Assembly (NCBI GenBank): GCA_001563335.1
Contig: LRSL01000020.1
Coordinates: 1-24,189 of the forward strand
Length of the DNA stretch: 24,189 nucleotides
Source of the DNA: Candidatus Thorarchaeota archaeon SMTZ1-45
Lineage (GTDB): Archaea; Asgardarchaeota; Thorarchaeia; Thorarchaeales; Thorarchaeaceae
Reading direction: 5' to 3'
A program made the position numbers and the translations under genes. The notes beneath the pieces are model-generated. The model ran no database searches, was not told the DNA's origin, and was given only the letters and a program-made list of their open reading frames with translations. Shown one piece after another: positions 2,161 to 24,189 of the stretch (position 1 is the first letter of the stretch; every line of letters starts with the position of its first letter).

Positions 2161-2200
2161 TAGTTTATTTAGATAATTAACTATAAGAATAGATAATTAG

Positions 2201-2218
2201 AAATATTTATATATATTT
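2201..2218 (+). promoter_or_regulatory. Archaeal TATA box for the 2298 gene
   Basis: AAATATTTATATATATTT containing TTTATATA, followed by a GC-rich leader from about 2232. Confidence 0.5.
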
Positions 2219-2297
2219 GAAGCTATATACTAGGTGTGGCCGGGAGGCCGCAAACAAGAGGAGACCCTGAAAATCTCCATAGGAAACGAAGGGGATA

Positions 2298-2669: not shown

Positions 2670-2766
2670 GATGCGCCATAAAAAGCACCCACTCCTACTA
2701 GTTGGTACCGTCTCGCATCTACCGATACTGCTTTTTGTGTTTGTGTTAAGACAATAGTGAAGAACA

Positions 2767-3288: not shown

Positions 3289-3302
3289 CCAAAAAAGACT
3301 TG

Positions 3303-3330
3303 ATTTGAGATTGAGAAGGGAGTCTCAAAT
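3303..3330. other. Intergenic hairpin/inverted repeat
   Basis: ATTTGAGATT-gagaaggg-AGTCTCAAAT, 10-bp stem with one G.U, just after the 3288 stop. Confidence 0.4.
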
Positions 3331-3395
3331 ACCATCTGGCTTATCAAGCTCTTCAATGATTATTAGTATTTAACACAGAACAGGAACAAGAGATT

Positions 3396-5942: not shown

Positions 5943-6112
5943 TGGTGGGCCGGGCGTGATTTGAACACGCGACCACCGCACGTTTGAACGCGCTTGCAAA
6001 TCAAGCGTATGTGTCAATGCGGTATCTAAGCCATTTCGCAAACGAATTTGCGATACTATAGCTGTTTCGCAAACGAATTTGCAAATCCATAGCCGGGCTA
6101 GACCACCGGCCC
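5943..6112 (-). tRNA. tRNA-Val(GAC) with encoded CCA; 30-nt canonical 37/38 intron (5982-6011) and 62-nt D-arm insert at 22/23 (6027-6088) made of two tandem 31-nt introns
   Basis: Mature reconstruction GGGCCGG TG GTCT AGCCCGGCTA TGAT A CCGCA TT GAC AG TGCGG TGGTC GCGTG TTCAAAT CACGC CCGGCCC A CCA (78 nt). BHB helix TTGA/TCAA at the canonical intron; TTTTTAAT about 30 nt upstream. Confidence 0.9.
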
Positions 6113-8612: not shown

Positions 8613-8691
8613 TGGTGGGATGTGGTGGGTTTGAACCACCGATCTTCGCCATATAAGAGCAATGTCATTCACCAAGCTAGACCAACATCCC
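8613..8691 (-). tRNA. tRNA with anticodon TAT (Ile-UAU) on a Val-type body; possibly a pseudogene
   Basis: GGGATGT TG GTCT AGCTTGGTGAA TGAC A TTGCT CT TAT AT GGCGA AGATC GGTGG TTCAAAC CCACC ACATCCC A CCA; full cloverleaf with two G.U pairs in the anticodon stem. Confidence 0.75.
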
Positions 8692-8693
8692 AT

Positions 8694-8767
8694 TGGTAGG
8701 CCAGGAAGGACTGGAACCTTCGATCTTCGCCATATCAGAGAGATGTCATTCGCTAGACCACTGGCCT
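8694..8767 (-). tRNA. Degenerate tRNA with anticodon GAT (Ile) on a Val-type body; likely a pseudogene
   Basis: AGGCCAG TG GTCT AGCGAA TGAC A TCTCT CT GAT AT GGCGA AGATC GAAGG TTCCAGT CCTTC CTGGCCT A CCA; D-loop lacks G18G19, T.C mismatch in the anticodon stem, T-loop TTCCAGT. Confidence 0.65.
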
Positions 8768-9850: not shown

Positions 9851-10309
9851 TCATGTATAATCTTTCATCAATCCCCACTCTTCCACCTTGCTTTCTTCCG
9901 GTTTTCGAGCAATGAAATAAACCTTAATTCTCGCTTGATCCAACTTGGACTTTTTTTCGAATAATTTTCGATCACCAAAACGAAATGTTTCCAAAACAAG
10001 ACCAAGCTCTCTTCGAAAGACAGACTCCCTGAAACTAGAGGAACCAAGACCTCGACCAACCTCACAATAGACATGTAGTGTTGGTCCTTCTGTGTCATTT
10101 TTCCACTCTGCTAAGACTTCATCTCGCATTAATCGAGTGTACCACCCGCGTATCTGTTTCCTATCATAATCTGGTCCAATTGTCAAGAAAAGATCTCCAG
10201 TCCGATCAGAATGAGTTAGTGTATAGGTGCGTGGATGAATTGGTACCTCCTCGGTCGTAGGAGGATTAAACCGTACATGGAGTTTCTTTGGATTCAATCG
10301 TCGCATCAA
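9851..10309 (-). CDS. Staygreen (SGR)-family protein, Mg-dechelatase homologue
   Basis: LNPKKLHV, PRTYTLTHSDRTGDLFLTIG, RDEVLAEW, LHVYC, F.REL..VL......D, V.F......EEWG signature. Confidence 0.88.
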   Translation of the reverse strand: MMRRLNPKKLHVRFNPPTTEEVPIHPRTYTLTHSDRTGDLFLTIGPDYDRKQIRGWYTRLMRDEVLAEWKNDTEGPTLHVYCEVGRGLGSSSFRESVFRRELGLVLETFRFGDRKLFEKKSKLDQARIKVYFIARKPEESKVEEWGLMKDYT

Positions 10310-10390: not shown

Positions 10391-10497
10391 TGGTGCCGCG
10401 GCGCGGATTTTTCGGCCACAAACTCGTAGTGAGTCTATGTGAACCGCGGACAACACGGTCTTCAGCCGTGCGATCTCCCTGGCTGATCTACCGCGGC
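10391..10497 (-). tRNA. tRNA-Phe(GAA) with a 30-nt non-canonical T-loop intron at 56/57 (10411-10440) and encoded CCA
   Basis: GCCGCGG TA GATC AGCCAGGGA GATC G CACGG CT GAA GA CCGTG TTGTC CGCGG TTC|intron|AAAT CCGCG CCGCGGC A CCA; TTTATAT about 34 nt upstream and a T-tract downstream. Confidence 0.92.
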
Positions 10498-11682: not shown

Positions 11683-12255
11683 CTACGACTTCTGTGATTC
11701 AACTTTGAACCACTCGCCATGGTCTTCACACTGGTGTAGATCAAATCCCACTTCTGAAACAATCTCCAAAATTCTTGGAAGAGTCTGGTTCTGTCCTCCT
11801 CTCAGACCATACCCAGTCTTGGATAGTGTTCCATCAGGGAAAGTAAAAGTAACCCAGAAAATTAGACTATCCCCAATTTCTGGAATGCGACTAGCCAGTA
11901 TTGATAGTTTACCATTCCTCTTGAGAACCCGATATGCCTCTTCAAGGACTGTACGTTTTGTGTTCCAGTCACTCATAAAACCCAGTGAGAACCATAAGGT
12001 CACAGTATCGAAAACTGAGTCCTTGAAACAAAGATGTCCACCATCTGCGACGAACCAATTTGATGAATTACCGTGAATCTGAGCCTCTTTAATCTCACTC
12101 ATTCTGATATCTAGAGCACAGACCCTCTCTCCCTCAATCCTAGACACAAGACCCTCTCCGCCACCCCCAATGTCTAAAATTAGACCTTCAGTGGTCACCC
12201 TTTCAAGTTTGATTTTTTGAGGAGGAGTCTCGATATGAGTTTGAGATTCCGACAT
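11683..12255 (-). CDS. Class I SAM-dependent methyltransferase
   Basis: ILDIGGGGEG motif I, ALD, FKDSVFDTV, EAYRVLK..G. Confidence 0.88.
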   Translation of the reverse strand: MSESQTHIETPPQKIKLERVTTEGLILDIGGGGEGLVSRIEGERVCALDIRMSEIKEAQIHGNSSNWFVADGGHLCFKDSVFDTVTLWFSLGFMSDWNTKRTVLEEAYRVLKRNGKLSILASRIPEIGDSLIFWVTFTFPDGTLSKTGYGLRGGQNQTLPRILEIVSEVGFDLHQCEDHGEWFKVESQKS

Positions 12256-12258
12256 GGT

Positions 12259-12888
12259 TTATTCCCCATCGACATCCTCTATAAAATCAGCCAAATCCTC
12301 GAGAATCTGATCAAAATTAGGTATATGCTCAAGTGCGTGTTGATGGGCTTCTTCGGCATCTCTGCTTCGTCCCTCCTCCTCATAAAAATTGATCAAATTC
12401 AACCATCCAACAAAGTGCTCTGGTCTAATCTCTATAGCCCTCTTCAATGCCTGTTCGGCTTCGTCAGTCCTTCCAAGATTAGAAAGGATGACACCTAGAT
12501 TACACCATGTATCAGAGTCCTCTGGATTTATCTCAGATGCCCTCCTGAATGCAACCTCTGCCTCCTCAAGTCGATCCGTGGCATTATAGACACACCCAAG
12601 ATTATACCACACATCTGACTCATCATTGTTATGCTCTAATGCTCCCTTGAGTGCCTGCTCCGCATCATCAAAGCGATTCTGGACAAATAATACAGCCCCC
12701 AAATCTCGCCATGCATCCACAAAAACGGGATTCAGGTCCAAAGCTGTTTGGAATGCAACCTCAGCCGCTTTCAAGTCCCCCTCATCATAATGAATTCCTC
12801 CAAGTTCATACCAGCTCTCTGGGTCTTTTGTATCCCTTTTCCTCTCTTGAAGTTCTTTACCTAGGGTTTCTCGGATTGAATCATTCAT
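12259..12888 (-). CDS. Tetratricopeptide repeat protein (about 5 TPRs)
   Basis: 34-aa periodic W..LG......A...F..A....P units. Confidence 0.92.
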   Translation of the reverse strand: MNDSIRETLGKELQERKRDTKDPESWYELGGIHYDEGDLKAAEVAFQTALDLNPVFVDAWRDLGAVLFVQNRFDDAEQALKGALEHNNDESDVWYNLGCVYNATDRLEEAEVAFRRASEINPEDSDTWCNLGVILSNLGRTDEAEQALKRAIEIRPEHFVGWLNLINFYEEEGRSRDAEEAHQHALEHIPNFDQILEDLADFIEDVDGE

Positions 12889-13025
12889 GTCTATTTCTCG
12901 CGTTGTGTCATCTAATATATCCTTGATTGTGTATCCCTCTTATCAAAAGTCTGAAAAAATGACCGAAAATAAGGAATATTACGTCGTTTCACAGACATGC
13001 ATAATGAGTAAAGGGCTTGAAAACA

Positions 13026-13655
13026 ATGGATCTCACAGATGTCACAAACATGATAATCGAGCTTGATATCGATAACGTAGCTAGTGCTGTTCAAGAGCAG
13101 ATTGATGCTGGCGCGAAACCACAGGATCTCCTGAAGGCACTCACAATAGGAATGGAAGAGGTGGGAAGAAGATACGAGAACGATGAGTACTTCCTTGCCG
13201 AGCTCGTTCTAGCTGGAGATACGATGAAAACAGCCTTTGAGATTCTCAAGCCACACTTAAAGTCTGATGCTGCTATTGATAAGTCGCCTATTGTTGCTGC
13301 TACTGTGAAAGGCGACAACCATGACATTGGTAAGAATATCCTAATCTCCATGCTTGTTTCTGCAGGTTTAGAAGTGGTTGACCTGGGCACGGATTGTCCC
13401 CCTGAGAAAATCGTTGAGGCTGTGAGGGAAACTAATGCGAAAGTTGTTGCACTCAGTGCTTTACTTACAATGACCATGAGAGAGATAGCTACAGTTGAAA
13501 AAGCACTCCGAGAAGCTGGTCTTCGGGATAGTGTGAAGATAATTGTGGGGGGTGCTCCACTCTCTATGGAACTTGCTAAGGAATTAGGGGCGGATGATTA
13601 TAGCCCAGATGCAATTGACGGAGTGAAACGGATTAAGGTTCTATTAGAGAAATAA
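13026..13655 (+). CDS. Corrinoid (B12-binding) methyltransferase protein
   Basis: N-terminal cap GMEEVG.RY...EYFLAEL, base-off motif GDNHDIGKN, DLG.D.PPE, SALLT.TM, VGGAP. The ORF track starts at TTG 13017. Confidence 0.93.
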   Translation: MDLTDVTNMIIELDIDNVASAVQEQIDAGAKPQDLLKALTIGMEEVGRRYENDEYFLAELVLAGDTMKTAFEILKPHLKSDAAIDKSPIVAATVKGDNHDIGKNILISMLVSAGLEVVDLGTDCPPEKIVEAVRETNAKVVALSALLTMTMREIATVEKALREAGLRDSVKIIVGGAPLSMELAKELGADDYSPDAIDGVKRIKVLLEK

Positions 13656-13792
13656 CATCTCCACAGTACCTGGATCATCTTCAGTCTTACCTGCAAAACA
13701 CACTTTGGCACATATGCACAATGCCTAAGACCACAAGTTGCTTTGGAATTACCACTGTGTGTCACATTATCGCTATCAGGGTGTGAGTACTT

Positions 13793-13999
13793 TTGGAAGA
13801 AGATGAGCCTGATCTCGAAACAGCGTTCAAGGTAGTAGCAATAATGCAGACGATAGCAGAAGACCTTGACGAGTCTGGAAAGAGAGCATGGCGTAAGATG
13901 CTCGGTATATCAACAAACAAATCTCCAGATGCTCACATCAAGAAAAAACAAAATCAATTCAAATCTGTTAAGAAATCAAGAAACACAAAAGGATCTTGA
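13793..13999 (+). CDS. Small hypothetical protein
   Basis: 68-aa ORF with TTG start; plausible N-terminal half and low-complexity basic tail; may be a remnant. Confidence 0.4.
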   Translation: MEEDEPDLETAFKVVAIMQTIAEDLDESGKRAWRKMLGISTNKSPDAHIKKKQNQFKSVKKSRNTKGS

Positions 14000-14034
14000 T
14001 TGAAGTCAATCTCCAAAAGATAATCGAGGACTAT

Positions 14035-15015
14035 ATGAATATGACTCAAGTAGGTGTCCCATTACCACTAGATAACAGCACATCGATTATTGACATAGGG
14101 TTCTTTGATGCTGCCGGTATCTTGTCAATCTATGTCATTAAAGGAGAACGTACATGCATTATTGACTCAGGAACTGATTCAGAGTTTCAGATGTTGTTTA
14201 ATGGGCTGAAAGAAGCAGATGCATATCCTCCTGACATTGTTGCTCTTACTCACTCTCACTATGACCATAGTCAAGGGGTACCAAAGCTAAGAGAACTGGC
14301 TGGAAAAGAGGGGCAGGAGATTGAAGTAGTAGCATCTCAAGTTGCAATCTCGTTGTTGGCAGATCAGTCCTATAACAGTGTGTTCAATGAAGAAGGGAAA
14401 TTTGTAGACATTACTGATGTAACACCTCTCAAAGAGGGCGATATAATTGATCTCGGTGGAGAAACACTCAAGGTATTTGCTACACCTGGACATTCCCAAG
14501 ATCAAATCTCATTTCTACACCAAGAGACTGGAAGGTTGTATGTTGGCGACTCATTAGGCATCTATTTGGGAGAAAACAGCTATGTCCCACCTTTCATGCC
14601 TCCAAGCTGGAACTTTGAGGCTTTTCAATCAACAATAAGTAAGTTGAAACAGATTGAATTCAAACAGATTTGTTTCGCCCACTTTGGATGCCTACCAGAG
14701 GAGAAATCTAAAGAGTTTCTCGATTTTGTGTTAGAACAGACCAAACTTTGGTGGAGTATTTTTGAGAAAGCAGATAATTCAGGAAGAGCCACTGACTATG
14801 ACCACCTCACCGAGAGAATCTTGGATGAATCAGGACTCACACTACCACATATTGAACTCTTGAGCGCGAAACTCAGGATTGGATTGAAGATTTTGAATGG
14901 TGTTAAAAAGATTAGAAGGAAACCGCCCCTTCTTGCTGCCCAAGTACTGATGCGCAACTATGTGATCCCTTGGTTGTCTAGGGGATACAAAATCTATAAG
15001 GAACACAAAATGTGA
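14035..15015 (+). CDS. MBL-fold metallo-hydrolase
   Basis: IIDSG, THSHYDHSQG (HxHxDH), TPGHS, VGD, FAHFG; GAGGA precedes ATG 14035 (ORF track start 13996). Confidence 0.9.
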   Translation: MNMTQVGVPLPLDNSTSIIDIGFFDAAGILSIYVIKGERTCIIDSGTDSEFQMLFNGLKEADAYPPDIVALTHSHYDHSQGVPKLRELAGKEGQEIEVVASQVAISLLADQSYNSVFNEEGKFVDITDVTPLKEGDIIDLGGETLKVFATPGHSQDQISFLHQETGRLYVGDSLGIYLGENSYVPPFMPPSWNFEAFQSTISKLKQIEFKQICFAHFGCLPEEKSKEFLDFVLEQTKLWWSIFEKADNSGRATDYDHLTERILDESGLTLPHIELLSAKLRIGLKILNGVKKIRRKPPLLAAQVLMRNYVIPWLSRGYKIYKEHKM

Positions 15016-15022
15016 AAAGTAT

Positions 15023-15045
15023 CTGTGAATGAAGTGAGATTTCAT
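15023..15045 (-). repeat. Weak tRNA 3'-end remnant (or a terminator hairpin)
   Basis: Reverse complement ATGAAAT CTCAC TTCATTC A CAG; shares AAGTGAGATTT with the 20873 remnant and GTGAATGAA with the 15816 remnant. Confidence 0.3.
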
Positions 15046-15099
15046 CTTTTTTGAACGATTTGTTTAAATCATCTCACGCTGTTGTGGACACGTAATCAA

Positions 15100-15783
15100 A
15101 TGGTAGGAAGTGAGAAAATCAATAGTTCATTGACATTAAGGAGAGAAGTGTTGGTTTTAGTTATCTCTGCTATTGTGATTTCTAGTGTAATCATTGTTGA
15201 CATTAGTCTTGCAGGACACGAATACAAGGTTTCTGAACCAACATTCACTCACAGATTTCCTGAAACAATCTATTTCTACAATATCAGCGAGGGAGTGAAC
15301 TTCAATGAATTCAGTTTCATAGTTGAACTCCCAGTAAATCACTCCGGTCATCATCACCTCATACCAAGGGAGATCTCTCTTCTCTTTTGGTTCAGAGATA
15401 ATGACTCTGGTGTGGATCTATCAACCTTCATTTATGCAATACAGGATGGTCCTCGAAACAGCACTTTCAGTTTCTATCTTCATGATTTTGACATGGTGAA
15501 CAAGTATGAAAATGGCTGGTGGTCTCCAACCCTGCTCACTTTCATTCTCAATGAAAACCCTGATGTGGATTCCGTTAGTTTTGGACTCTATCTAGAGTTA
15601 CTTCTAGCGAACATCAATGGGGATGACTTTGATGGTCATGAACTGAATGCTCAGCTTGAGATGAACGTGACATACTCCCGCTGGTGGTTTGGACTACCAG
15701 TTAATCGAGTCCATCAGACAATCAGCTTCGTCTTCAATCTTCCAGACGATGGAGTAGCAGACGTCCAATCCTTGGAATACTGA
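15100..15783 (+). CDS. Hypothetical membrane-anchored or secreted protein
   Basis: N-terminal hydrophobic helix followed by an aromatic/Asn-rich domain with several N-x-S/T sites; ORF track start 15082. Confidence 0.75.
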   Translation: MVGSEKINSSLTLRREVLVLVISAIVISSVIIVDISLAGHEYKVSEPTFTHRFPETIYFYNISEGVNFNEFSFIVELPVNHSGHHHLIPREISLLFWFRDNDSGVDLSTFIYAIQDGPRNSTFSFYLHDFDMVNKYENGWWSPTLLTFILNENPDVDSVSFGLYLELLLANINGDDFDGHELNAQLEMNVTYSRWWFGLPVNRVHQTISFVFNLPDDGVADVQSLEY

Positions 15784-15815
15784 TCACCCTAGAATAGTAA
15801 TTGTATGCAGATTAT

Positions 15816-15838
15816 TGGTGAATGAATTAAGAGTTGAA
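15816..15838 (-). repeat. Weak tRNA 3'-end remnant
   Basis: Reverse complement TTCAACT CTTAA TTCATTC A CCA: T-loop-to-CCA spacing is exact but the T-stem does not pair. Confidence 0.3.
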
Positions 15839-15986
15839 TGATCTGCGAACGAAGGCAGAGAAGTACAGATAATGCGTTAAATAAACGATTTATATATTGG
15901 ACATCCTATATATTAATATCCGATGCCCAGATGATTCGCATGATCTCACATAGAATCTCACTTCAAGGCTACAGAGGTCATGAACT

Positions 15987-16514
15987 ATGAAAGAAGAAAT
16001 CAAAGGAAATATTCTCAACCCATTGCCAATAGCGCTAGTAGGGGCTTTAGTAAAAGGGAAACCCAACTACCTTGTGATTGGTTACATTTCCCCATTCAAT
16101 TTTGGGAAACATGTTTTCTTTAGTCTGTATAAAAAACGCTACACACGAGTTGGTATCCTAGAAAACATGACATTCAGTGTAAACATCCCCTCTATAACAA
16201 TACTTGAAGAAACACAACTATGCGGAAGTAAATCTGGTCGTGATTATGACAAGTCTTCCCTCTTTGATTCATTCTATGGAGAACTGAAAACAGCTCCAAT
16301 GATTAGAGAATGTCCCTTAAACATGGAATGCGAGGTCGACCAAATAATCGACTATGACCTTAACGAGGGAATCATTGGAAAGGTCGTCAAATCATATGCG
16401 GATTCCAACACCCTGATTGATGGCAAATTGGATATCAGAACAGTACATCCAATATTATGGTCTACTTGCGGTGACTTCAACTACTACCATATTGGAGCTC
16501 GAATAGAAACTTGA
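15987..16514 (+). CDS. Flavin reductase-like FMN-binding protein (flavoredoxin family)
   Basis: P.PIALVGA...GKPN, FSVNIP, CGSKSGR..DK, APMI.ECPLNMECEV, IGKVV. Confidence 0.9.
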   Translation: MKEEIKGNILNPLPIALVGALVKGKPNYLVIGYISPFNFGKHVFFSLYKKRYTRVGILENMTFSVNIPSITILEETQLCGSKSGRDYDKSSLFDSFYGELKTAPMIRECPLNMECEVDQIIDYDLNEGIIGKVVKSYADSNTLIDGKLDIRTVHPILWSTCGDFNYYHIGARIET

Positions 16515-16533
16515 CATTGTGGAATTGAAACTA

Positions 16534-16563
16534 TAATGAACCAGATGAAACTCGAACTAATGA
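16534..16563 (-). repeat. Decayed tRNA 3'-end remnant
   Basis: Reverse complement TC ATTAG TTCGAGT TTCAT CTGGTTC A TTA; 4 of 5 T-stem pairs, intact T-loop, correct spacing. Confidence 0.45.
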
Positions 16564-16661
16564 ACAATTGTTTAGTCATTCAAGACCAGCTTCTGTCAAT
16601 ACCATTACTTTGATGTTAGGATTGAAAGGCAATCTCTCTATGTAGGACGTGGGTTGCAGGA

Positions 16662-17405
16662 ATGTCTGATACTCTTCAAAAGCTTGACCAGATTGAGAAG
16701 ATTGTTTCACAGGACCCTAAAAAGACGCCTCCTGAAGTTCGAAAACAATTCTGGAGGATTGTACGAGAGATTAAACGCAGTCCTAATCCAGATATCACTG
16801 AAGTTGCACAAGCTGCTCGAATTAGAAATGTCCTGTTCAAGGAAAAAAGAGGACGTACCTATTCCCTTTGGCCATGCATTGTTCTGCTGACTCTGATTGG
16901 CGCACTTGGCCCAACTCTTTGGTATCTCAGACTTCTCGAGGTTTCTCTAGACTGGAATGCTTTTCTTGTTTGGACAACATCGGATTGGTGGATCTTCTTA
17001 AGACGTCTGGGAAGTTTACTTGCAGCCACTTTCTTCTTCTATCCATTGGGCAGATTGATAGCTGGAAAATGGGCTGGGATTCGGATCGACGGAATGAGTC
17101 GTGGAATGTATAATGAGCCTACATTGAAGATTGACTACGAAACATTTCTACTAACACCACCACCGAAAAGGAAGTGGTTCTTCTTCTTTGCAGGAATTTG
17201 GACAGTCATTACCTCATTTGGAATTGGTTTTGTTGGTTTCATTCTCGTTGGTGATCTATGTGGCATCATCACTGCTATTTTTCTGGGTATTAGTGAAGGG
17301 GCTGCAATCTGGAGTGGAACTACGAAGAACATCGGCGGAGAGATGGCTCACTACAATCGTGAGAGGAAGATCGAGAGAAGTTGGAAACGACAAATAGGAG
17401 CATGA
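16662..17405 (+). CDS. Hypothetical membrane protein
   Basis: Charged N-terminal domain and about 4 TM helices; GIRID.M....EPTLKIDY.TFL segment. Confidence 0.8.
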   Translation: MSDTLQKLDQIEKIVSQDPKKTPPEVRKQFWRIVREIKRSPNPDITEVAQAARIRNVLFKEKRGRTYSLWPCIVLLTLIGALGPTLWYLRLLEVSLDWNAFLVWTTSDWWIFLRRLGSLLAATFFFYPLGRLIAGKWAGIRIDGMSRGMYNEPTLKIDYETFLLTPPPKRKWFFFFAGIWTVITSFGIGFVGFILVGDLCGIITAIFLGISEGAAIWSGTTKNIGGEMAHYNRERKIERSWKRQIGA

Positions 17406-17408
17406 ATT

Positions 17409-17435
17409 TGGACCATTATGTTTCGAACTCTCGAT
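17409..17435 (-). repeat. Decayed tRNA 3'-end remnant
   Basis: Reverse complement ATC GAGAG TTCGAAA CATA ATGGTCC A; shares TGGACCA and GAACTC with the 20873 remnant; 1-nt deletion, CCA lost. Confidence 0.4.
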
Positions 17436-17532
17436 TCACAATTTGGTTGTTTTGAGAGTAAGCTAATCAAGTGATATGATTGTCCAATCCAATAAGAATT
17501 CAGATGTTTCCCTAGGTTCCGGTAGTTAAGCT

Positions 17533-18468
17533 CTACATGAATATTCTCTCTCCAGGAACTTTCGGGAACAATGTGATCTCCTTGATGTGTGACCGTTTCG
17601 TCAGGAAACGAACAAGTCTTTCAACACCAAGACCTCCGCCAGCGCTAGGACCTATCATATCTGCCTTTGCCAGCTCGAGATATGGAGTAAATTCCTCAAA
17701 TCTATGGTTTCTCTCCTTGAGTTTTCTAACGATTATTTCATACTTGTAATCTCGTTCTCCTCCAGAAAGGGCCTCACCATATCCTTCAGGATAGTACAGG
17801 TCATAATTATGGTAGTGCCCTCTTCTGACTTCATCCTCTTTATCATAGAACTCTCTCTCAAAATCAGTAATCCAGAATAAATCGTCCTCACGTTGTGAGA
17901 TACGACTACCAAACTCTTCACCAAACTCACGTCTTAGGTCCCAGCTTGAATGGACACGGAAGGGCTTTCTTGGAATCTTGATATGAGCCCTTAACTCTTT
18001 CAACTCCTTCTCGCACCTGTCCTGAACCTTAGCGAATATGTAGATGACCAAGTCTTCCATGAATGACATGAACTCATGGGCTGATGTATCTTTCAACTCA
18101 ATATCAAGTTGCGAGAACTCTAGCAGGTGATTATCACTCTGCACATCTTTCTCCAACCGAACATTCGGCGAAACAATGTAGATTCCTTTGACACCCAAGG
18201 TGGAGATTGCTACTTGCTTATGCAGAGCCATACTTTTGGTAAGCTGGAGCTTCTGATTGAGATATGTAATGGTCGCCTTGTATACTGGATGACATAGTGG
18301 ATCTGTGACAGGTGAAACAATCACAGGCATCATCTGAAGGAGCCCCTCTTGATAGAGGAACTCATGAATCGCAAGCAAAGCCTCGGACTGTATTTTAAGT
18401 ATCTCTACGATTTTTCCTTTCTCCTGTAGATATGACTCATTTGATTTCAAGACTGATGAGTAAGTCAT
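17533..18468 (-). CDS. asnA: Archaeal-type asparagine synthetase A (AsnRS catalytic-core paralogue lacking the anticodon-binding domain)
   Basis: SPVTDPL, LTKSM.LHKQ, SPNVRLE, HLLEFSQLDIE, GEALSGGER, SAGGGLGVERL; 311 aa with no N-terminal OB fold. Confidence 0.88.
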   Translation of the reverse strand: MTYSSVLKSNESYLQEKGKIVEILKIQSEALLAIHEFLYQEGLLQMMPVIVSPVTDPLCHPVYKATITYLNQKLQLTKSMALHKQVAISTLGVKGIYIVSPNVRLEKDVQSDNHLLEFSQLDIELKDTSAHEFMSFMEDLVIYIFAKVQDRCEKELKELRAHIKIPRKPFRVHSSWDLRREFGEEFGSRISQREDDLFWITDFEREFYDKEDEVRRGHYHNYDLYYPEGYGEALSGGERDYKYEIIVRKLKERNHRFEEFTPYLELAKADMIGPSAGGGLGVERLVRFLTKRSHIKEITLFPKVPGERIFM

Positions 18469-18591
18469 GTCGATAACATCCCTAGATAATATAACTCAAA
18501 ATAGTAAATCAAGAAATAGTCTTGCAACAAAAATTGGAAATAATAGCAAGAATAACAACTGAAATAAACTTTTACGGAATATTTTTCCATT

Positions 18592-19041
18592 ATGAATGAA
18601 TTAGATGATAAAGATAACAGAATCCTACTCTTACTCAAAGAGAACTCTCGCATGACTACCAAAGAGATGTCCAAAGAACTCGAAATACCACAGACAACAA
18701 TCCACAATAGAATAAAGAATCTGGCTCAGAGAGGGATTATCAAGCGATTCACAATAGATATAGACGGAAAGAAAATCGGGAAAGGACTGGTTGCCTACAT
18801 TTTATGCACAGTTTCATATCGTTCTGCAAGAGGAGAGAAGATCAATCAACTTGAGGTCGCCCAAGTAATAAAAGAACTACAGGATGTAGAAGAAGTGTTC
18901 ATTGTGACAGGTGACAATGATATGATTGTAAAAGTCGCAGTGAAAGATGTTGACGCACTGAACGACTTTGTGATTTTTACATTGAGAAACATTGAAGGTG
19001 TAGAAAGAACTGTCACTAGTGTAGTCCTCTCAGAGATATAA
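18592..19041 (+). CDS. Lrp/AsnC-family transcriptional regulator
   Basis: LDDKD.RIL.LL.ENSR....E....L......IHNRIK.L...GIIK.F; RAM domain VTGDND.IVKV...LR.IEGVERT.T.VV. Confidence 0.95.
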   Translation: MNELDDKDNRILLLLKENSRMTTKEMSKELEIPQTTIHNRIKNLAQRGIIKRFTIDIDGKKIGKGLVAYILCTVSYRSARGEKINQLEVAQVIKELQDVEEVFIVTGDNDMIVKVAVKDVDALNDFVIFTLRNIEGVERTVTSVVLSEI

Positions 19042-19168
19042 CTGCAAAGTCCGAAATAACTGCAAATTCTCTTCAGTCAGGATTGGTCTACAATAAAGTG
19101 TGTGACTCTTCTCAGAGTTAAAAAGTCTGCCAACTATTTGTGAAGTTCAAAATCCAAGAGAACAAAGT

Positions 19169-19200
19169 TGGTGAGCTAGCGTGTTTTGAACATGCGATCT
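19169..19200 (-). repeat. tRNA 3'-end remnant (Val-like), putative att scar
   Basis: Reverse complement AGATC GCATG TTCAAAA CACGC TAGCTC A CCA versus the tRNA-Val end TGGTC GCGTG TTCAAAT CACGC CCGGCCC A CCA. Confidence 0.7.
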
Positions 19201-19214
19201 CTTTAATTATTGCA

Positions 19215-19412
19215 CTATGACTCAAACAGTCTGTTAACGAGCTTACATCCATCATGGGTGGGAGGCTTGTAGAAACACATCTTCTCTGGGTCCTCCTTAG
19301 AATACCTTACACACCCCCAGCACTGACTAAACAATCGAACACCCTTCTTCTCCCTATGAGCCTTACACAACTCAAATGCTTTCTCCAAAGGAATAGAAAG
19401 TTCAGAGGTCAT
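19215..19412 (-). CDS. Small Cys-rich protein (5 Cys including CWGC), possible metal binding
   Basis: 65 aa, C-x14-CxxC-x11-C-x9-C; fills the space between two tRNA-end remnants. Confidence 0.7.
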   Translation of the reverse strand: MTSELSIPLEKAFELCKAHREKKGVRLFSQCWGCVRYSKEDPEKMCFYKPPTHDGCKLVNRLFES

Positions 19413-19479
19413 AATCTAGCTTCTCTTCTTTCTGGGAATTAAACATTTTTGCTTTTTTTAAAGGGGAAATCAATAGAGA

Positions 19480-19499
19480 TGGTTGGCCATATGAGATTC
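19480..19499 (-). repeat. tRNA 3'-end remnant truncated in the T-loop, putative att scar
   Basis: Reverse complement GAAT CTCAT ATGGCCA A CCA followed by a pyrimidine-rich tail. Confidence 0.55.
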
Positions 19500-19605
19500 A
19501 GTTTATGTGCTCTCTTTGCTTCATTGGAGTCTAAATTTCAATAATCATACTGGTTAGAACATCTAGTTCACTAGAGCAAACCATTGTCTACGCTGACTCT
19601 CAATG

Positions 19606-20733
19606 TCACTTCTCCTCAAACTGAACACATCTAACTTTTCCTTTCAATCCCGCCGCAAGACAATGGTTGCAAGAAATACACCGAGCAGGTTCCTGGTTGC
19701 CAATTTTCGCTTCTTCAGTCCAACGAGATAGAAGTGCCGGCTCACTAATCAAGGGACGACTAAGCTGAACCACATCGAAAGCAGCCTGGGAATTTCCATC
19801 TCCAGTTAGAAGCCTAACAACAGTTTCCGGAGACCGGATTCCACCCACCAGTCCAACTAAGACCTCACTGCCACGTACGATCGACTGGATAACCGTTGCA
19901 TCATCAAAGAAATATGCCTCCCCTTCATCTTTCGGATTTCGACTTGGGTTTGGTCCACTAATTATAATGCAATATGCTCCCGCCTCAGCGAGTTTCTTTG
20001 CCAGCTCGCCCACTTCCTTGGAACTTACGGTATCCGAGCTTGAGTTCACCTTCACCTGAATGGGAATATCAACCGCACGCCTCACAGCTATTACAGCATC
20101 CACCATCGCTTTGCAACGTCCTTCAATTGTTAATCCGGTGAATGGGTCATCCACTGGTCGTTTATTGAACGATGGGTCAAAGAATTGCCAAAGCCCATAG
20201 TTGTGAGCTCCATGTAGTTCAATCAGATCGAATCCTGCTTCAACTGCACGTTTGGCTGCATTGGCATATGCTTGAGTGACTCTTTCTATATGCTCCACTG
20301 TCATAGCTTTTACTCGAACAACATCCCCCTTAGGTTGAGGGGCATCCATCTCACTAGGTCCAAATACTGCATCGATGCCTGTCACTCTTGGAAGGCTCCT
20401 GCTCCCGCAATGAACTAATTGAGCTGCTGCAAGACCTCCTGAAGCATGAATCGCCGCAACAAGGCGTTTCAGACCTTCAACATCGCTTGGTCTTGAATTG
20501 GAAATCATGCGCTTGACTGCCTGTCCCTCATGCATTACATATTGAAAACCAGTTACCACGACACCTGCTTTGATTTTACCATACGTTTCGATGACAGTAT
20601 CTCCGCATATCCCATTCTCTTCCGCTTGACTCATCCAAGTAGCGGCTCGCATAATTCGGTTGGGAACCACCATGCCATTTGGCAATTCGAGTTTCTTGAG
20701 TACAACACGTTCCCAGGTTTCTTGCTTTACCAT
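19606..20733 (-). CDS. NADH:flavin oxidoreductase (Old Yellow Enzyme family) with a C-terminal Cys cluster
   Basis: NRIMRAAT, QLVHCG, AA.RA.EAGFD.IELHGAHNY, VGGIRS, SRPLISEP, CISCNHC-x9-C. Confidence 0.92.
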   Translation of the reverse strand: MVKQETWERVVLKKLELPNGMVVPNRIMRAATWMSQAEENGICGDTVIETYGKIKAGVVVTGFQYVMHEGQAVKRMISNSRPSDVEGLKRLVAAIHASGGLAAAQLVHCGSRSLPRVTGIDAVFGPSEMDAPQPKGDVVRVKAMTVEHIERVTQAYANAAKRAVEAGFDLIELHGAHNYGLWQFFDPSFNKRPVDDPFTGLTIEGRCKAMVDAVIAVRRAVDIPIQVKVNSSSDTVSSKEVGELAKKLAEAGAYCIIISGPNPSRNPKDEGEAYFFDDATVIQSIVRGSEVLVGLVGGIRSPETVVRLLTGDGNSQAAFDVVQLSRPLISEPALLSRWTEEAKIGNQEPARCISCNHCLAAGLKGKVRCVQFEEK

Positions 20734-20872
20734 CGAATCAACTCACATTTTCTTCTCTCTCTCGTACTCGAAAGGCAGAACTCTCCACTTTCTTTCACTC
20801 AAGCATGAAGGAGCATCTGACAAAGTGATATACACCCATTATATAGGCTTGGTGTGATGCCAAAAGAAGGAG

Positions 20873-20916
20873 TGGTGGACCAAGTGAGATTTGAACTCGC
20901 TACCTCCTATTCGCAG
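20873..20916 (-). repeat. tRNA 3'-half remnant (Ala-like: T70, TGC at the anticodon position), putative att scar
   Basis: Reverse complement C TGC GA ATAGG AGGTA GCGAG TTCAAAT CTCAC TTGGTCC A CCA followed by CTCCTTCTTTT; no D-arm or 5' acceptor strand. Confidence 0.75.
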
Positions 20917-20970
20917 ATTGTACGAATCACAACCATGTTTCTGAAACACTAGCAGTAAGAGTTTAGTGTG

Positions 20971-21171
20971 TTAACGATGCAGAGTAACAGCTGATCTCCC
21001 AGTCATCCATTTGTTATGTCGCGTAATTTGCTGCACATTTTTCCTATCTATTGGTGCAGGTATTTTATCTTCTCTAGATTGCTTTCTAGGAATTTTAATT
21101 TCTTGTGAGTAGTCTTGAACGATTACCCTATGTTGCGATTGGTTACACTCTTTTTTCCTAGCTATCATCAT
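20971..21171 (-). CDS. Small basic hypothetical protein (about 66 aa)
   Basis: MMIARKKECNQ...RHNKWMTGRSAVTLHR; the longer ORF-track extension to 21327 runs through AT-rich promoter-like DNA. Confidence 0.5.
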   Translation of the reverse strand: MMIARKKECNQSQHRVIVQDYSQEIKIPRKQSREDKIPAPIDRKNVQQITRHNKWMTGRSAVTLHR

Positions 21172-21254
21172 TATCACAAACTGATAATAAATTATCATAA
21201 AATAATATAAAGTTATCTGAAATTGAAAAGATATACTCATGAAATGATGATAAT
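21170..21254. promoter_or_regulatory. Cluster of TGATAAT/ATTATCA half-sites
   Basis: ATTATCA 21170-21176, TGATAAT 21182-21188, ATTATCA 21191-21197, TGATAAT 21248-21254. Confidence 0.5.
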
Positions 21255-21317
21255 TGATTGATGTTTTGGTCTGCAGCATTTTGAAATAACAGAACACCCG
21301 CATACTTGCAGGAATCA

Positions 21318-21977
21318 CTAAAAACAATCTTGGAGTTTCTTCACTAATTCAGGGTGATTTAAAATAATCCCCAAAAAGGCGATATAATCGAGAGTCTTAA
21401 TCATATTTCCCCATTCACCTGAGAGGATTTCATCCAATTTTCCTTTGTCGTCCGCCTCTGCAAGTTTCGTAATCTCATCGCTCATTGCTATACTAATCTC
21501 ATTTGTAACTTCACGTAGACATGACTCGGTTTCTTTTGACCCACCATGTAAAATCATTAATCCTCCCAAAACTCGATTGATTAAATCTATGCCTTCTTTA
21601 GACATTTCTGGAGGGAGGCCATAATGGAAGAGTTTTGCTGTTCGCGAGAAGAGTGTTTCAGATGCAGTCTTTCCAAACTCAACTCGCTTTCCTCCAGGTG
21701 TCACAAGACCCTCCTTTTCTAGAGCTTTGAGATATCTGTAAATTGTGTTATAAGACTTAGACCCAACAATTTCGTGGTCAGCAGCTCTTAACTTGTATGC
21801 GTATTCAATCTCTCGGATGGTCATAGGACGTTTTCGTAGAATCTCAATTATGATGTAGTAATTCGGATCTTCAAGCAGTCTTATTGCTTGAGGTGAATCT
21901 ATTATTTTCACCAATGTGGGTGTAAAATGTAGTACATCCTGCGTTTTGCCAACTTCAGGTGTCTTTCCATTCGTCAT
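21318..21977 (-). CDS. Winged-helix (ArsR-like) transcriptional regulator
   Basis: L.DP....IIEILRKRPMTIREI...KS..TIYRYLKALEKEGLV...G.R......ETLFSRTAK. Confidence 0.82.
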   Translation of the reverse strand: MTNGKTPEVGKTQDVLHFTPTLVKIIDSPQAIRLLEDPNYYIIIEILRKRPMTIREIEYAYKLRAADHEIVGSKSYNTIYRYLKALEKEGLVTPGGKRVEFGKTASETLFSRTAKLFHYGLPPEMSKEGIDLINRVLGGLMILHGGSKETESCLREVTNEISIAMSDEITKLAEADDKGKLDEILSGEWGNMIKTLDYIAFLGIILNHPELVKKLQDCF

Positions 21978-22222
21978 CTCTCATGTCACTTATTAATTGC
22001 TACCAGCTTGTGGTATAACATTTTCGTTTCAAGGCAATGAATTCTCATATTTTGGGAAAAATGAGTCCATGGAATCAGCCTGAACTACAATCACCTGGAT
22101 AGCGCAGAAGAAATGACGGACAATGCACTTGCATTTCAATGTTTATCTGGCGTTGACACAAATAATTATGAATCAACCAATCACCAGAATCGTTCAATAG
22201 AGGTCTGTGGAGGATTGGAACA

Positions 22223-22672
22223 GTGAGTAAAGCAGCATCAGAACGAAGCTTGGTCTTCTTTATTATAGCTGCAATCATGATTATACTGGTCTTAGTCCTA
22301 CCATTCGCATATCGAATAGACATTGGTCCTGGGCCTGACTCAATTAGAGCTATGACTTGGGACTACATCGAGTCAACCTGGTATTCAGGATTCAGATTTT
22401 GGAATCCTCTAGATACGCTTCCATACACTATTCTAAGGCTCGTATTTGCTGTATATTTGGCTAGATTCTGTTTAGGAAGTACCACTGCAAAGACAACAGT
22501 CCTCATAGGAATTCTTGCTGAGCTACAACCAATTATTGTTTCAGCTCCACTCGTTTACTTCATTGACTGGTCCGGGGATCCATTAGTCCCTCTATACATA
22601 CCAGTACCGATCATGTTACTATTAGGTATAATTCTTGTTCTCATCCTCAAAGGCAGGTATGCTAAAGACTAA
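22223..22672 (+). CDS. Hypothetical four-TM membrane protein
   Basis: Hydrophobic segments, IPVPIMLLLG C-terminal helix; GTG start with upstream GGAGG. Confidence 0.75.
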   Translation: MSKAASERSLVFFIIAAIMIILVLVLPFAYRIDIGPGPDSIRAMTWDYIESTWYSGFRFWNPLDTLPYTILRLVFAVYLARFCLGSTTAKTTVLIGILAELQPIIVSAPLVYFIDWSGDPLVPLYIPVPIMLLLGIILVLILKGRYAKD

Positions 22673-22693
22673 GGTTAGCTGGTGAGGCATAGA

Positions 22694-22724
22694 TGACGGA
22701 ACAGGCGAGATACGAACTCGTGAC
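22694..22724 (-). repeat. tRNA 3'-end remnant (G73), putative att scar
   Basis: Reverse complement GTC ACGAG TTCGTAT CTCGC CTGTTCC G TCA; 4 of 5 T-stem pairs and exact spacing. Confidence 0.65.
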
Positions 22725-22820
22725 GATTTCTGTCTAAGGAGCCTAAGAAACGCTTTAGCGGATGATTATTAACCAACACCTAACACTGGAATTTAGATTG
22801 GCTAGGGATAAGGGGTTGTC

Positions 22821-24189
22821 ATGAAAAGAAGTGAACTGCTTGCAATTACATCTGTTGTAGTCACGCTTTTGTTGGTTTCTCTATTGTATCTTGCATCACA
22901 AGGATTCTGGAATGGGGCAACTGATTCTTCACCTGATATAATCATATATAATGGTGAAATCGTGACTATGGAGCAATCCCCCGCCCAAGTCGAGGCTGTA
23001 GCCATCCAAGGTGAGTATATTGTTGCTGAAGGCGATGAGAATGATATCCTCGCGATGGCAGGACCAAACACCCAATTCATCGATCTTGAAGGAAGGACAC
23101 TCCTACCGGGTTTCAATGACGCTCATTCTCATCATATAGGTGACCGGAGTTATGTGAACCAATCAACAGCAGAAGAAGTGATTGAATCAGTACTTAGCTG
23201 TGGATGGACTAGCATTTCTGAACTCTTTGTGAATCAAGAACGACTGGATGGACTCATATCTTTGGATCAACAGGACAACCTTCACGTTCGTGTCAATGCC
23301 TATCTTCCACTAAGCTGGCAATTTGATAGGTTCGGCAATTGGTATCAAGCTTATCAACCCGGACAAGAATATAGTTCAAAGCTGAGGATAGGAGGAGTGA
23401 AGATCTTCATGGACGGTTGGATCACCAATTGGGACCACTATTTCGACCAGACTGAATTGGCTGGACTCGTCAAGGAAGCTCATGATGCTGGGTTCCAGAT
23501 TGCTATACATAGTGTTACGGACACTGCTACAGATGTTGTCCTGAACTCGCTCGAATCGGCCCTAGATGGGCAATCGAATGATGCGTATAGACACCGTATT
23601 GAACATCTTGTCCTACTCAGAAACGAGCAAATGCAGAGAATGAGCGACCTTGGAATTCTCGCTTCTTTCCAACTCACATGGTTCAACTCAGATGATGTAG
23701 AATATTACCAATTTCCGATTTATGAGGAGTATTCGGACCTTATAGCAAGATGGCGAGATATTGTAGAAGCGGGAATACCCTCACTCGGAAGTACTGATTT
23801 TCCGTGGAATCTGGGAGAGCATAGATCTGCTATGAGAGCGGTTTCTTTAGCAGTCACTAAAATCGGGGACAAAGGGCTCACTCCCCCTGATTGGATGTTG
23901 AATCAGTCCCTCAGCGTGGAGCAGGCCCTCCGGCTCATAACAATCGACGCGGCTTACGGCACATTTCAAGAAGACACTAAGGGGAGCATTAAGGTCGGGA
24001 AACTTGCAGACCTGGTGATGCTCTCAGACAATCCCCTGACAGTTTCGGAAGACAATTTGGCTGACATAGAGGTGCTTATGACGATGGTTGGAGGCGTTGT
24101 GGAATACACTGCTCCTGGACAACAATTTCTATCTGCAAGGTGCGTGGGAGCTGGCAGTCAAACAGAAGAGGGCGCAAACCAACCGATCA
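22821..24189 (+). CDS. Partial amidohydrolase family 3 (YtcJ-like) protein with an N-terminal TM anchor/signal; runs off the right edge
   Basis: Manual translation: MKRSELLAITSVVVTLLLVSLLYLA..., IYNGEIVTM, IDLEGRTLLPGFNDAHSH, VKIFMDG, QIAIHS, RHRIEH, GSTDFP, KGSIKVGKLADLVML. Absent from the ORF track because it has no stop in the window. Confidence 0.92.
   Translation, partial: MKRSELLAITSVVVTLLLVSLLYLASQGFWNGATDSSPDIIIYNGEIVTMEQSPAQVEAVAIQGEYIVAEGDENDILAMAGPNTQFIDLEGRTLLPGFNDAHSHHIGDRSYVNQSTAEEVIESVLSCGWTSISELFVNQERLDGLISLDQQDNLHVRVNAYLPLSWQFDRFGNWYQAYQPGQEYSSKLRIGGVKIFMDGWITNWDHYFDQTELAGLVKEAHDAGFQIAIHSVTDTATDVVLNSLESALDGQSNDAYRHRIEHLVLLRNEQMQRMSDLGILASFQLTWFNSDDVEYYQFPIYEEYSDLIARWRDIVEAGIPSLGSTDFPWNLGEHRSAMRAVSLAVTKIGDKGLTPPDWMLNQSLSVEQALRLITIDAAYGTFQEDTKGSIKVGKLADLVMLSDNPLTVSEDNLADIEVLMTMVGGVVEYTAPGQQFLSARCVGAGSQTEEGANQPI

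Follow-up and report, generated by a model that had tools for sequence, protein, structure and literature searches.

Gene cassettes and tRNA 3' fragments in the window

The DNA analysed here, 24,189 nucleotides long and called the window below, is the entire contig C20 of a metagenome-assembled genome (MAG) of Candidatus Thorarchaeota archaeon SMTZ1-45 (assembly of 3.54 Mb in 119 contigs, 88% complete). Its right-hand part holds a series of one- or two-gene units (cassettes), most of them bounded by short minus-strand sequences that resemble a tRNA gene's 3' end, starting at the T-loop and ending with CCA (fragments, or scars where their origin is discussed); coordinates are collected in Table 1. 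Throughout, G000 denotes this genome, other G numbers denote genomes, C numbers contigs and L numbers loci. All genomes compared are MAGs.

Table 1. Cassettes and tRNA 3' fragments of the window, from right to left. PWM, position weight matrix; x/24, matches to the 24-nucleotide tRNA-Ala 3' consensus; ORF, open reading frame; wHTH, winged helix-turn-helix; OYE, old yellow enzyme; aaRS, aminoacyl-tRNA synthetase; MBL, metallo-beta-lactamase.
Feature	Position	Strand	Evidence and remarks
Amidohydrolase gene; cassette closest to the tRNA side within the window	22821..24188	+	Pfam Amidohydro_3, E = 4.7e-50; cut by contig end, goes on in C15
tRNA-Ala-type 3' fragment (T-arm, acceptor 3' strand, degenerate CCA)	22694..22721	-	PWM 17.4 bits; 19/24
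Membrane-protein cassette gene, 149 aa	22223..22672	+	No Pfam or PHROG match
Heavily decayed fragment (the stub at 22113)	22114..22140	-	Positional orthology only
Two-gene cassette: wHTH protein (21318-21977) and small ORF (20971-21327)	20971..21977	-	HTH_5 match under the cut-off; no PHROG match
Best-preserved tRNA-Ala 3' fragment	20873..20900	-	PWM 32.1 bits; 21/24
OYE-type flavin oxidoreductase gene	19606..20733	-	Pfam Oxidored_FMN, E = 4.1e-31
Decayed fragment closing the OYE cassette	19480..19503	-	14/24
Small Cys-rich ORF, 65 aa, putative cassette gene	19215..19412	-	ORF list; no Pfam or PHROG match
tRNA 3' fragment, T-arm nearly intact, 6-nt acceptor strand	19169..19195	-	16/24
Two-gene cassette: AsnA-type class-II aaRS-like gene (17533-18468, -) and Lrp/AsnC regulator (18592-19041, +)	17533..19041		Pfam tRNA-synt_2, E = 5e-36; AsnC_trans_reg, E = 1.3e-16
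Decayed fragment with indel	17409..17436	-	Positional orthology only
Membrane-protein cassette gene, 247 aa	16662..17405	+	No family
Decayed fragment	16534..16561	-	16/24; mismatches mostly G-to-A
Flavin-reductase cassette gene	15987..16514	+	Pfam Flavin_Reduct, E = 2.2e-14
Weak candidate fragment, right end of secreted-protein unit	15816..15839	-	14/24
Putative secreted or membrane-anchored protein cassette gene, 233 aa	15082..15783	+	No family
Weak candidate fragment right after the MBL-fold gene stop	15023..15046	-	14/24
MBL-fold gene	13996..15015	+	Pfam Lactamase_B, E = 9.5e-18; outside the range of the earlier note

Fragments were sought with a PWM over tRNA positions 49-76, trained on 35 tRNA genes of G000 and run over both genome strands; PWM, hidden Markov model and Hamming tests stand in for a covariance model. 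At 15 bits or more, 61 sites are found in G000 and 0 in the reversed, non-complemented genome. Besides the three annotated tRNA genes, two minus-strand sites are prominent in the window, 20873-20900 and 22694-22721. No matching 5' acceptor strand lies within 400 nt upstream of either, so both are orphan 3' fragments rather than genes; the former runs a few bases further 5', into variable-loop-like sequence. Since most tRNA genes of G000 encode their CCA (38 of the 41 called by ARAGORN with introns allowed), a CCA-ended fragment can be a plain DNA copy of a gene end.

An earlier note, made from the sequence alone, had placed nine such minus-strand fragments at unit boundaries. Between 15,000 and 22,800, the 24-mer tRNA-Ala 3' consensus is matched at 16/24 or better by four minus-strand sites (16534, 19168, 20873 and 22694), all intergenic, and by no plus-strand site, against 0.24 expected per strand at the genome-wide rate; the matches are thus biased to one strand and exceed the background, an outcome in favour of the note. 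When gapped local scores were compared with those of 4000 random 44-nt windows, 22694 and 20873 were equalled by 0/4000 and 19168 by a fraction of 0.0008, 16534 (0.0105) and 19480 (0.035) were marginal, and 17409, 15816 and 15023 (0.12 each) and 22110 (0.76) were in the range of chance. An Ala-specific nhmmer model built from 78 congener fragments is convincing at 20873 only (E = 1.4e-6), gives 3.7 bits at 22694 and does not recover the weak window sites. Rfam (all families, E <=10) reports no fragment in the window, only two annotated tRNAs and a snoRNA-like match. The latter (SNORD27-like, 14991-15060, +; 24.2 bits, E = 4.6, gathering score 52) overlaps candidate 15023 and is most likely due to chance. 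A PWM match of our own at 22198 (7.0 bits) was rejected, being part of the conserved 5' region of the membrane-protein gene rather than a fragment.

Of the nine, then, 20873 and 22694 are unambiguous, 19168 and (marginally) 16534 exceed chance, 19480, 17409 and 22113 are upheld by positional orthology only, and 15023 and 15816 remain weak. The note had itself called the leftmost scars individually weak, and several are indeed not confirmable one by one. PWM and consensus scans found no candidate inside the AsnA-like/Lrp pair or the small ORF/wHTH pair, in keeping with its description of both as single units.

The positional orthology comes from related genomes. Strong fragments lie downstream of OYE in L046, L053 and L048; the 19480 fragment aligns with them column by column, and its counterparts there and in L009 score 12-29 bits. 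Fragment 17409 aligns with one downstream of the AsnA-like gene in L009 (768-795, 21.4 bits). The 22113 stub aligns with a 30.6-bit fragment in L013 (1981-2008) that lies immediately upstream of that locus's homologous wHTH cassette; there the pair is fragment-flanked at both ends. As regards 16534, L013 has a partial fragment upstream of its homologous membrane gene. As to the stronger sites, 22694 has counterparts beside the amidohydrolase gene (L010 1723, L015 13135) and 20873 aligns with the fragment upstream of the OYE cassette in other genomes, while the acceptor sequence of 19168 is unlike tRNA-Ala and nearer to fragments of the C39 array described below. At the left end, L009 has a 28.9-bit fragment at the position equivalent to 15023, after the homologous MBL gene. 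The 836-bp secreted-protein segment, at whose two ends 15023 and 15816 lie, is absent between the same flanks in G010:C168 and present in L061 and L057; the two sites have a 9-nt direct repeat in common, and 15816 lies about 30-50 nt inside the right junction of this indel relative to L011. The MBL-fold gene is probably the most distal cassette, and no fragment was detected between 13656 and 13995.

Probable continuation of the array to an intact tRNA-Ala(GGC) gene

The intact co-oriented tRNA gene predicted to lie to the right of the window was found on another contig. tRNA-Ala(GGC), at C15 51490-51566, is followed by co-oriented Ala-type fragments at 52109, 52675, 54940, 57000, 58531 and 59377 and a weaker one at 56257, the series reaching to 47 nt from the contig end. 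The right end of C20 overlaps the reverse complement of the C15 end by 9 nt, and the amidohydrolase ORF cut at the window end stays in frame across the junction. The window encodes only 456 residues of this protein, and tblastn alignments to relatives reach residues 479-483; the joined ORF has 493 codons and reads through the fragment at C15 59377-59404, with relatives' alignments ending at 468-483. No contig-end overlap of at least 15 nt was found, and the 9-nt overlap was noticed only once protein homology pointed there. Single contigs carry both window-cassette homologues and the intact tRNA-Ala in G010 (L010) and G005 (L015), and C15 and window cassettes stand within the same arrays in L010 and L016. 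We infer from these data that C15 and C20 are joined. The tRNA gene would then lie 7.9 kb past the right end of the window, the whole array would measure about 17-18 kb, from tRNA-Ala to about 13.7-15.0 kb of the window, and the window would contain its older, distal half. The farther a fragment is from the tRNA, the lower its score tends to be (Spearman rho = -0.78, n = 16).

An assembly artefact does not explain the gene order in the window. Logan contigs span 12000-17194, 17168-21899 and 21901-23083 with at most one mismatch in run X1, possibly the sample of origin, and several window junctions are also bridged by Logan contigs of runs X2 and X3, from other studies.

One ARAGORN call on C15, a tRNA-Tyr with a 1245-nt intron at 53628-54967 (L039), is false: unrelated sequence has been stitched to the orphan fragment 54940-54967, whose T-arm is fully paired and represents a variant unlike the resident tRNA-Ala.

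The same cassettes in permuted order among congeners

Parts of the region were matched in all 18 same-genus genomes searched. Across 20 contigs fetched from congeners the layout of the locus is constant: a conserved core (homologues of 7-13.6 kb of the window), a variable array of co-oriented Ala fragments, and tRNA-Ala(GGC). The order of the cassettes is not. The MBL gene, ahead of the AsnA-like/Lrp cassette in the window, lies behind it in L009, between that cassette and the OYE cassette; the AsnA-like/Lrp pair itself is intact there, with a fragment at its left. OYE precedes the amidohydrolase gene in the window and follows it in L010, L012 and L014, and likewise precedes the 149-aa membrane gene in the window and follows it, directly adjoining, in L017; homologues of this membrane gene with its conserved 5' region also occur in L055, L049 and L057. 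In L013 the wHTH pair and the 247-aa membrane gene have exchanged places, and five relatives have an additional gene ahead of the flavin reductase that is missing in the window. Every cassette nevertheless retains its orientation relative to the fragments. The prediction that gene order would not be conserved across the scars is therefore borne out and, judging from these comparisons, a permuted order cannot result from loss alone.

A 22-mer of the Ala repeat (at most 2 mismatches) occurs in 4-17 copies in each of 28 congeners, with 0 control matches. In other genera of the family there are 3-13 matches, in a survey of the phylum (121 genomes) that is not clean outside the genus, as real tRNAs of other lineages match.

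The OYE cassette gives the sharpest view of the boundaries. In 18 distinct loci aligned around it, sequence 5' of the T-loop of the Ala fragment is unrelated, and homology runs from the T-loop through CCA and a pyrimidine tail to a conserved TATA-like box, placed between fragment and gene, and into the gene itself. Downstream, the 3' untranslated stretch aligns up to the next fragment and then diverges, unless the next cassette is common to the loci compared. Breakpoints thus coincide with fragments at both ends, as the note had proposed. With metagenome contigs added, the gene was found in 29 distinct loci. Of the usable loci, 21 of 27 have a fragment of at least 16/24 upstream at no more than 300 nt (22/29 before L056 and L096, where the gene is cut by the contig end, were dropped), and 15/28 have one downstream; the genome-wide rate predicts about 0.009 per 300-nt window. 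Beyond the fragments, 15 groups of flanking sequence were distinguished upstream (25 loci) and 10 downstream (26 loci). That single-gene units with fixed boundaries recur in so many contexts suggests that the gene-sized unit itself moves or is exchanged, and in this the locus is integron-like.

Anatomy of the repeat, unit size and cargo

The repeat comprises the last 23 letters of the tRNA-Ala gene, from the 5' edge of the T-loop through CCA, and continues into the pyrimidine tail. For 65 Ala-type congener fragments, chosen as lacking full pairing in the T-stem, conservation of the five stem pairs is 0.28-0.46, which is the level of chance (about 0.375 expected). Identity to the consensus is 0.68 at T54, at least 0.92 in the T-loop from T55 onward and 0.62-1.0 over positions 61-76; PWM selection over 49-76 inflates all of these values, and the informative part is the step from 53 to 54/55. 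The 11 nt past CCA are 65-97% pyrimidine. The classical core geometry of tyrosine recombinases, as reported in work by Williams in 2002 on integration sublocations in tRNA genes, is a 7-nt loop with a 5-bp inverted repeat around it.

Successive co-oriented fragments lie a median of 1346 bp apart (interquartile 805-1940, range 298-4322; 69 spacings in 31 congener loci), an upper bound on unit size since decayed fragments may be missed. By its predicted families, the cargo of the window, C15 and other arrays is of accessory type. It includes the redox enzymes (flavin reductase, OYE oxidoreductase), the AsnA-like protein with its Lrp regulator, the amidohydrolase and the MBL-fold hydrolase, together with a serine beta-lactamase-family protein, a NosD-like beta-helix protein, a CAAX protease, a methylase fragment, GNAT acetyltransferases, an acyl-CoA thioesterase, an AbiV-like HEPN protein, CxxCxxCC proteins and membrane proteins. 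No PHROG matched any of ten cassette proteins that have no family.

Arrays at other tRNA genes

Orphan 3' ends of at least 15 bits number 19 in G000. Thirteen of them are preceded, at no more than 5 kb upstream, by a co-oriented tRNA or orphan; another two stand first at the end of a contig. The arrays lie downstream of tRNA-Ala(GGC) on C15, tRNA-Leu(GAG) on C34, tRNA-Gln(TTG) on C101 and tRNA-Cys on C18, with a Thr-type array at the end of C47 and another at an intron-bearing tRNA on C39. Similarity among array copies begins at the T-loop and extends past CCA into the flank, where the first Leu fragment and the intact gene have 17 nt in common. The thioesterase cassette of the C34 array has homologues in 8 of 28 congeners and stands among tRNA-Leu(GAG)-type fragments in G000, L102 and L104, at another rank of the array in the latter two.

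Two further observations concern these loci. On C39 (1953-5143, L041) three fragments have one type of acceptor strand that is unlike the adjacent intact tRNA; this, with the resemblance of window fragment 19168 to them, could reflect replacement of the tRNA 3' end or movement of cassettes from site to site. On C69 a 33-bit orphan Arg-type 3' end (168627-168654, -) lies 1.3 kb upstream of tRNA-Arg(ccg) (169948-170055, +), inverted relative to its parent gene, unlike the co-oriented arrays.

Searches for a recombinase and for circular forms

The tyrosine recombinase predicted to the right of the window was not found. A six-frame search of G000 for PF00589, PF16795, PF00239 and PF01867 gave 0 matches, and the control genomes did match (14/14 for PF00589). 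Within the genus, eight of 28 genomes match PF00589 (tyrosine recombinase), and the 20 array-region contigs fetched include none of the 18 contigs with listed PF00589 places. One of 15 congener integrase loci inspected (L074) has a tRNA-like 3' end nearby; most of these loci lie on short contigs, which allowed no connection with the arrays to be drawn. No recombinase or viral family was matched by about 30 cassette ORFs (Pfam) or 10 ORFs (PHROGs). Beside tRNA-Ala on C15 no IntI was seen; a PUA protein and a DEAD-box helicase lie upstream, and three ORFs there (86, 94 and 88 aa) were left unscanned. As all 28 genomes hold copies of the Ala 22-mer and only eight match PF00589, the arrays persist without a visible known recombinase.

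In viral contigs the Ala 22-mer occurs in seven stretches, six of them in or beside tRNA gene clusters (contigs of 33-304 kb). None looked like an attP site, L081 being judged from only about 1.1 kb.

With no PF00589 match, G000 also has no XerA-type recombinase. If real, this would be a lineage without the usual archaeal chromosome-dimer resolvase.

Proposed serial insertion at the T-loop and its alternatives

The anatomy of the repeat, its sharp boundary at the T-loop, the decay gradient, the permuted order and the recurrence of the pattern at several tRNA genes point to tiny, integrase-free cassettes having been inserted one after another, in a site-specific manner, at the T-loop of the tRNA-Ala(GGC) 3' end, a reading to which we assign a probability of about 0.7. 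Its mechanistic parts, namely a circular intermediate, the crossover chemistry and an enzyme acting in trans (supplied by the host, an unbinned element or an unrecognised family), we infer. A unit of one or two genes would arrive as a small circle bearing a copy of the T-loop-to-CCA segment of the tRNA and a short pyrimidine tail. A site-specific crossover at the 5' edge of the T-loop would let the incoming copy restore the tRNA and displace the old 3' end outward as a 23-nt scar. Repetition would produce the succession tRNA, newest cassette, scar, older cassette, scar, with the scars decaying outward. Recombination between two scars would free a circle with one cassette and one scar, able to re-enter, and such release and re-entry would place the same cassettes, with the same boundaries, in other orders in other species.

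Several points weigh against this proposal. The catalytic step has no recombinase candidate; G000 is 88% complete and bins often omit mobile elements, so a conventional integrase may simply be missing. No scar-to-scar joint, circle, empty site or skipped cassette was seen in the Logan contigs of four runs, which lose rare variants and are silent on excision, and no small circle was found among 16 metagenome loci with the OYE gene. The junction of C15 and C20 is based on 9 nt and protein homology, without a spanning read. Five of the nine window sites do not rise above chance from sequence alone, and the statistic for the decay gradient takes in weak sites picked by eye. Finally, cassettes of the Leu, Gln, Cys, Thr and C39 arrays have no homologues in the fetched Ala-array loci. 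Each array may keep its own cassette pool, as would be expected if an incoming site must rebuild the cognate tRNA.

Among the alternatives, the one that survives best, though we consider it improbable, is that viruses or plasmids of 5-40 kb with their own integrases integrated serially at tRNA-Ala and were deleted to a gene or two between att scars. Such a course has precedents: the available text on Prochlorococcus islands describes tandem integration, partial tRNAs and degraded elements (10.1101/2020.12.28.424599), and that on streptococci describes decay to att-flanked, integrase-less cis-mobilizable elements (CIMEs; PMC5704250). The tyrosine recombinases of 8 of 28 congeners, one of them (L074) adjoining a tRNA-like 3' end, and a truncated DNA methylase fragment in one C15 cassette would also fit. 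However, random decay should not reproduce one gene between the same pair of boundaries in 21 of 27 loci and 15 contexts, and the spacing is tight and small (median 1346 bp). Moreover, the six-frame search found no integrase remnants in G000, none lie on the 20 fetched contigs, and the ten unknown cassette proteins match no viral family.

A slightly poorer prospect is that the scars are ancient and that gain, loss and reordering today are due to homologous recombination between 23-40 bp repeats, with no site-specific enzyme. That near-identical short repeats flank every cassette genus-wide, that no recombinase was found, and that the first Leu fragment and the intact gene have 17 nt past CCA in common would all suit exchange driven by homology. 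This explanation, however, does not account for the origin of each cassette's tRNA-derived end or for the step at T54/T55, and the outward decay is better explained by insertion at the tRNA end than by exchange anywhere in the array.

We regard it as very improbable that the fragments are under selection as signals between independent genes, for instance terminators or sites of RNA processing that arose from tRNA ends. The pyrimidine- or T-rich tail of about 11 nt after each fragment and the TATA-like box just past the fragment of the OYE cassette lend this idea some appeal, and a signal role may exist as a side effect rather than as an alternative. Selected signals should not decay freely with distance from the tRNA, and selection on them would not permute gene order; with the 5' T-stem and 5' acceptor strands gone, a tRNA-like fold is impossible. 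Chance resemblance or an assembly artefact, suggested by the five window sites within the range of chance and by the silence of the Rfam tRNA model on any fragment, has a negligible probability and is already refuted for the strong sites by 61 genomic sites against 0 in the control, the 4 to 0 strand asymmetry (0.24 expected), the order kept in contigs of other samples and the same architecture in 28/28 congeners.

Comparison with known mobile systems

Integrons consist of an integrase, IntI, an attI site and arrays of attC cassettes, and have reportedly been described in archaea. The earlier note had called the locus integron-like, and this holds for its layout: a fixed chromosomal docking site is followed by short one- or two-gene cassettes with one recombination site each, the newest apparently nearest the docking site, the same cassettes are reordered among relatives, and the cargo is accessory (GNAT acetyltransferases, oxidoreductases, hydrolases, the AbiV-like HEPN protein, small unknown proteins). 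It fails for the machinery. Neither IntI nor any other tyrosine recombinase was found, and the repeat is a tRNA 3' end that, having lost its 5' T-stem strand, cannot form an attC-type hairpin. Docking takes place at a functional tRNA gene, which every insertion has to restore; the cassette genes lie on both strands instead of being co-oriented, mostly promoterless and served by one shared promoter, OYE having its own predicted promoter-like box; and a genome has several arrays at different tRNA genes, each with cognate fragments. By membership, the array is not an integron.

An intact tRNA at one end and a displaced 3' fragment as direct repeat, as on C15 and in L010 and L015, recall Islander-type islands, which differ in having an integrase gene inside the unit; here none of PF00589, PF16795, PF00239 or PF01867 was matched, nor did about 30 ORFs searched against Pfam supply one. 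Casposons are set apart by their Cas1 (PF01867), with 0 matches in G000. CIMEs, in the available text on streptococci, are decayed integrative conjugative or mobilizable elements (ICEs, IMEs) found beside functional integrase-bearing elements (PMC5704250). Like the cassettes, they have fragments on both sides and no recombinase; the units here are about 0.3-4 kb, at least 15 per array, defined single-gene units recurring across species, and in an archaeal host. Neither ICE or IME remnants nor a functional partner element was seen, in MAGs that are incomplete.

Tycheposons are described in the available text as having a tyrosine or large serine recombinase, often with replication genes (910/937 with tyrosine recombinase; 10.1101/2020.12.28.424599). 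The Prochlorococcus islands that they remodel resemble the present locus in having flexible genes at a handful of tRNA genes, scattered partial tRNAs, newcomers that push older material inward and niche-adaptive cargo, as far as that text goes. It also reports fragmented integrases in those islands, whereas none was found here, and the partial tRNAs of the present arrays delimit nearly each gene or gene pair. Among archaeal elements, the parts of the reports available place Thermococcales islands of about 9-23 kb at tRNA genes (PMC9897764) and have Heimdallarchaeial HeimV1 and aloposons integrating at tRNA genes (PMC8813620). The likeness lies in integration at the tRNA 3' part with a full copy and a partial one as direct repeats. 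By the same accounts each of these is one large element that has an integrase of its own or giant genes, unlike the arrays of gene-sized units described here. According to the available text of a 2024 paper, no non-viral integrated element other than aloposons had by then been reported from Asgard archaea (PMC11529989).

By analogy, the closest logic appears to be that of att-flanked, integrase-less elements stacked by accretion, as outlined in the available text of PMC5704250, and that of tRNA-anchored, tycheposon-remodelled islands. The arrays are set apart from CIMEs and tycheposons by unit size, regularity, the host and the fact that no integrase-bearing partner was seen. We found no description of gene-sized cassette arrays bounded by tRNA fragments in the literature, in Asgard archaea or elsewhere, in a search that left the supplements (tycheposon Supplementary Doc. 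1, Table S3 of the tRNA-fragment paper) outside its scope.

Asgard archaea are the closest known relatives of eukaryotes, and little has been learnt of the ways in which they acquire and rearrange genes. This type of locus, present as several arrays per genome with dozens of accessory genes, would explain a share of the flexible genome of the genus, and each array would be a natural, directional record of acquisition, newest beside the tRNA. If the enzyme is new, its target would be present in every tRNA gene, which bears on recombinase evolution and on genome engineering.

Interrupted tRNA genes and other features

The tRNA-Phe(GAA) gene of the window (10391-10497, -) has a 27-28-nt insertion in the T-loop, after TTC, which is the point where the cassette repeats begin. 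The gene was overlooked by ARAGORN and Rfam, and no other tRNA-Phe was called in G000. In G016 the orthologue (L021 1486-1562) is uninterrupted, and downstream of it lie a 0.5-kb cassette and a Phe-type fragment (924-951), both absent from the window. Several congeners have an insertion of about 26-30 nt in tRNA-Ala(GGC), between the 5' T-stem strand and a second copy of that strand (L048/L020 ~2519-2626; L012 2139 and 5876; L016 6674; L018 15424; L019 8258); one such gene was miscalled by ARAGORN as an intron-bearing tRNA-Glu.

It is an old idea that introns in archaeal tRNA genes guard against integration. A wider reading, offered tentatively and well short of even odds, would combine these elements: a dedicated gene-capture platform of Thorarchaeota in which the T-loop-to-CCA segment serves both as docking site and as cassette-borne site, single-gene circles are cut out and put back by a recombinase that belongs to none of the families searched (tyrosine, serine and Cas1), and the T-loop and T-arm insertions (tRNA-Phe in the window, tRNA-Ala in congeners) are a defence that breaks the docking site. 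Protection of this kind becomes testable with intron-bearing and intron-free alleles, with and without cassettes, within one genus.

Further tRNA genes lie to the left of the array. The 3' end of the one at 5943-6112 (-) is perfect (39.3 bits), and the gene includes an extra stretch of about 95 nt with an internal direct repeat; ARAGORN reads the gene as Lys(ctt) with a 70-nt intron, and Rfam has no match. Two others, 8613-8691 and 8694-8767 (-), lie 2 nt apart, are called Ile(tat) and Ile(gat) by ARAGORN and are both Rfam tRNA matches. Adjoining tRNA-Phe in the conserved core is a gene (9851-10309, -) for a protein of the Staygreen family (PF12638, E = 8.9e-45), a family known chiefly from plants.

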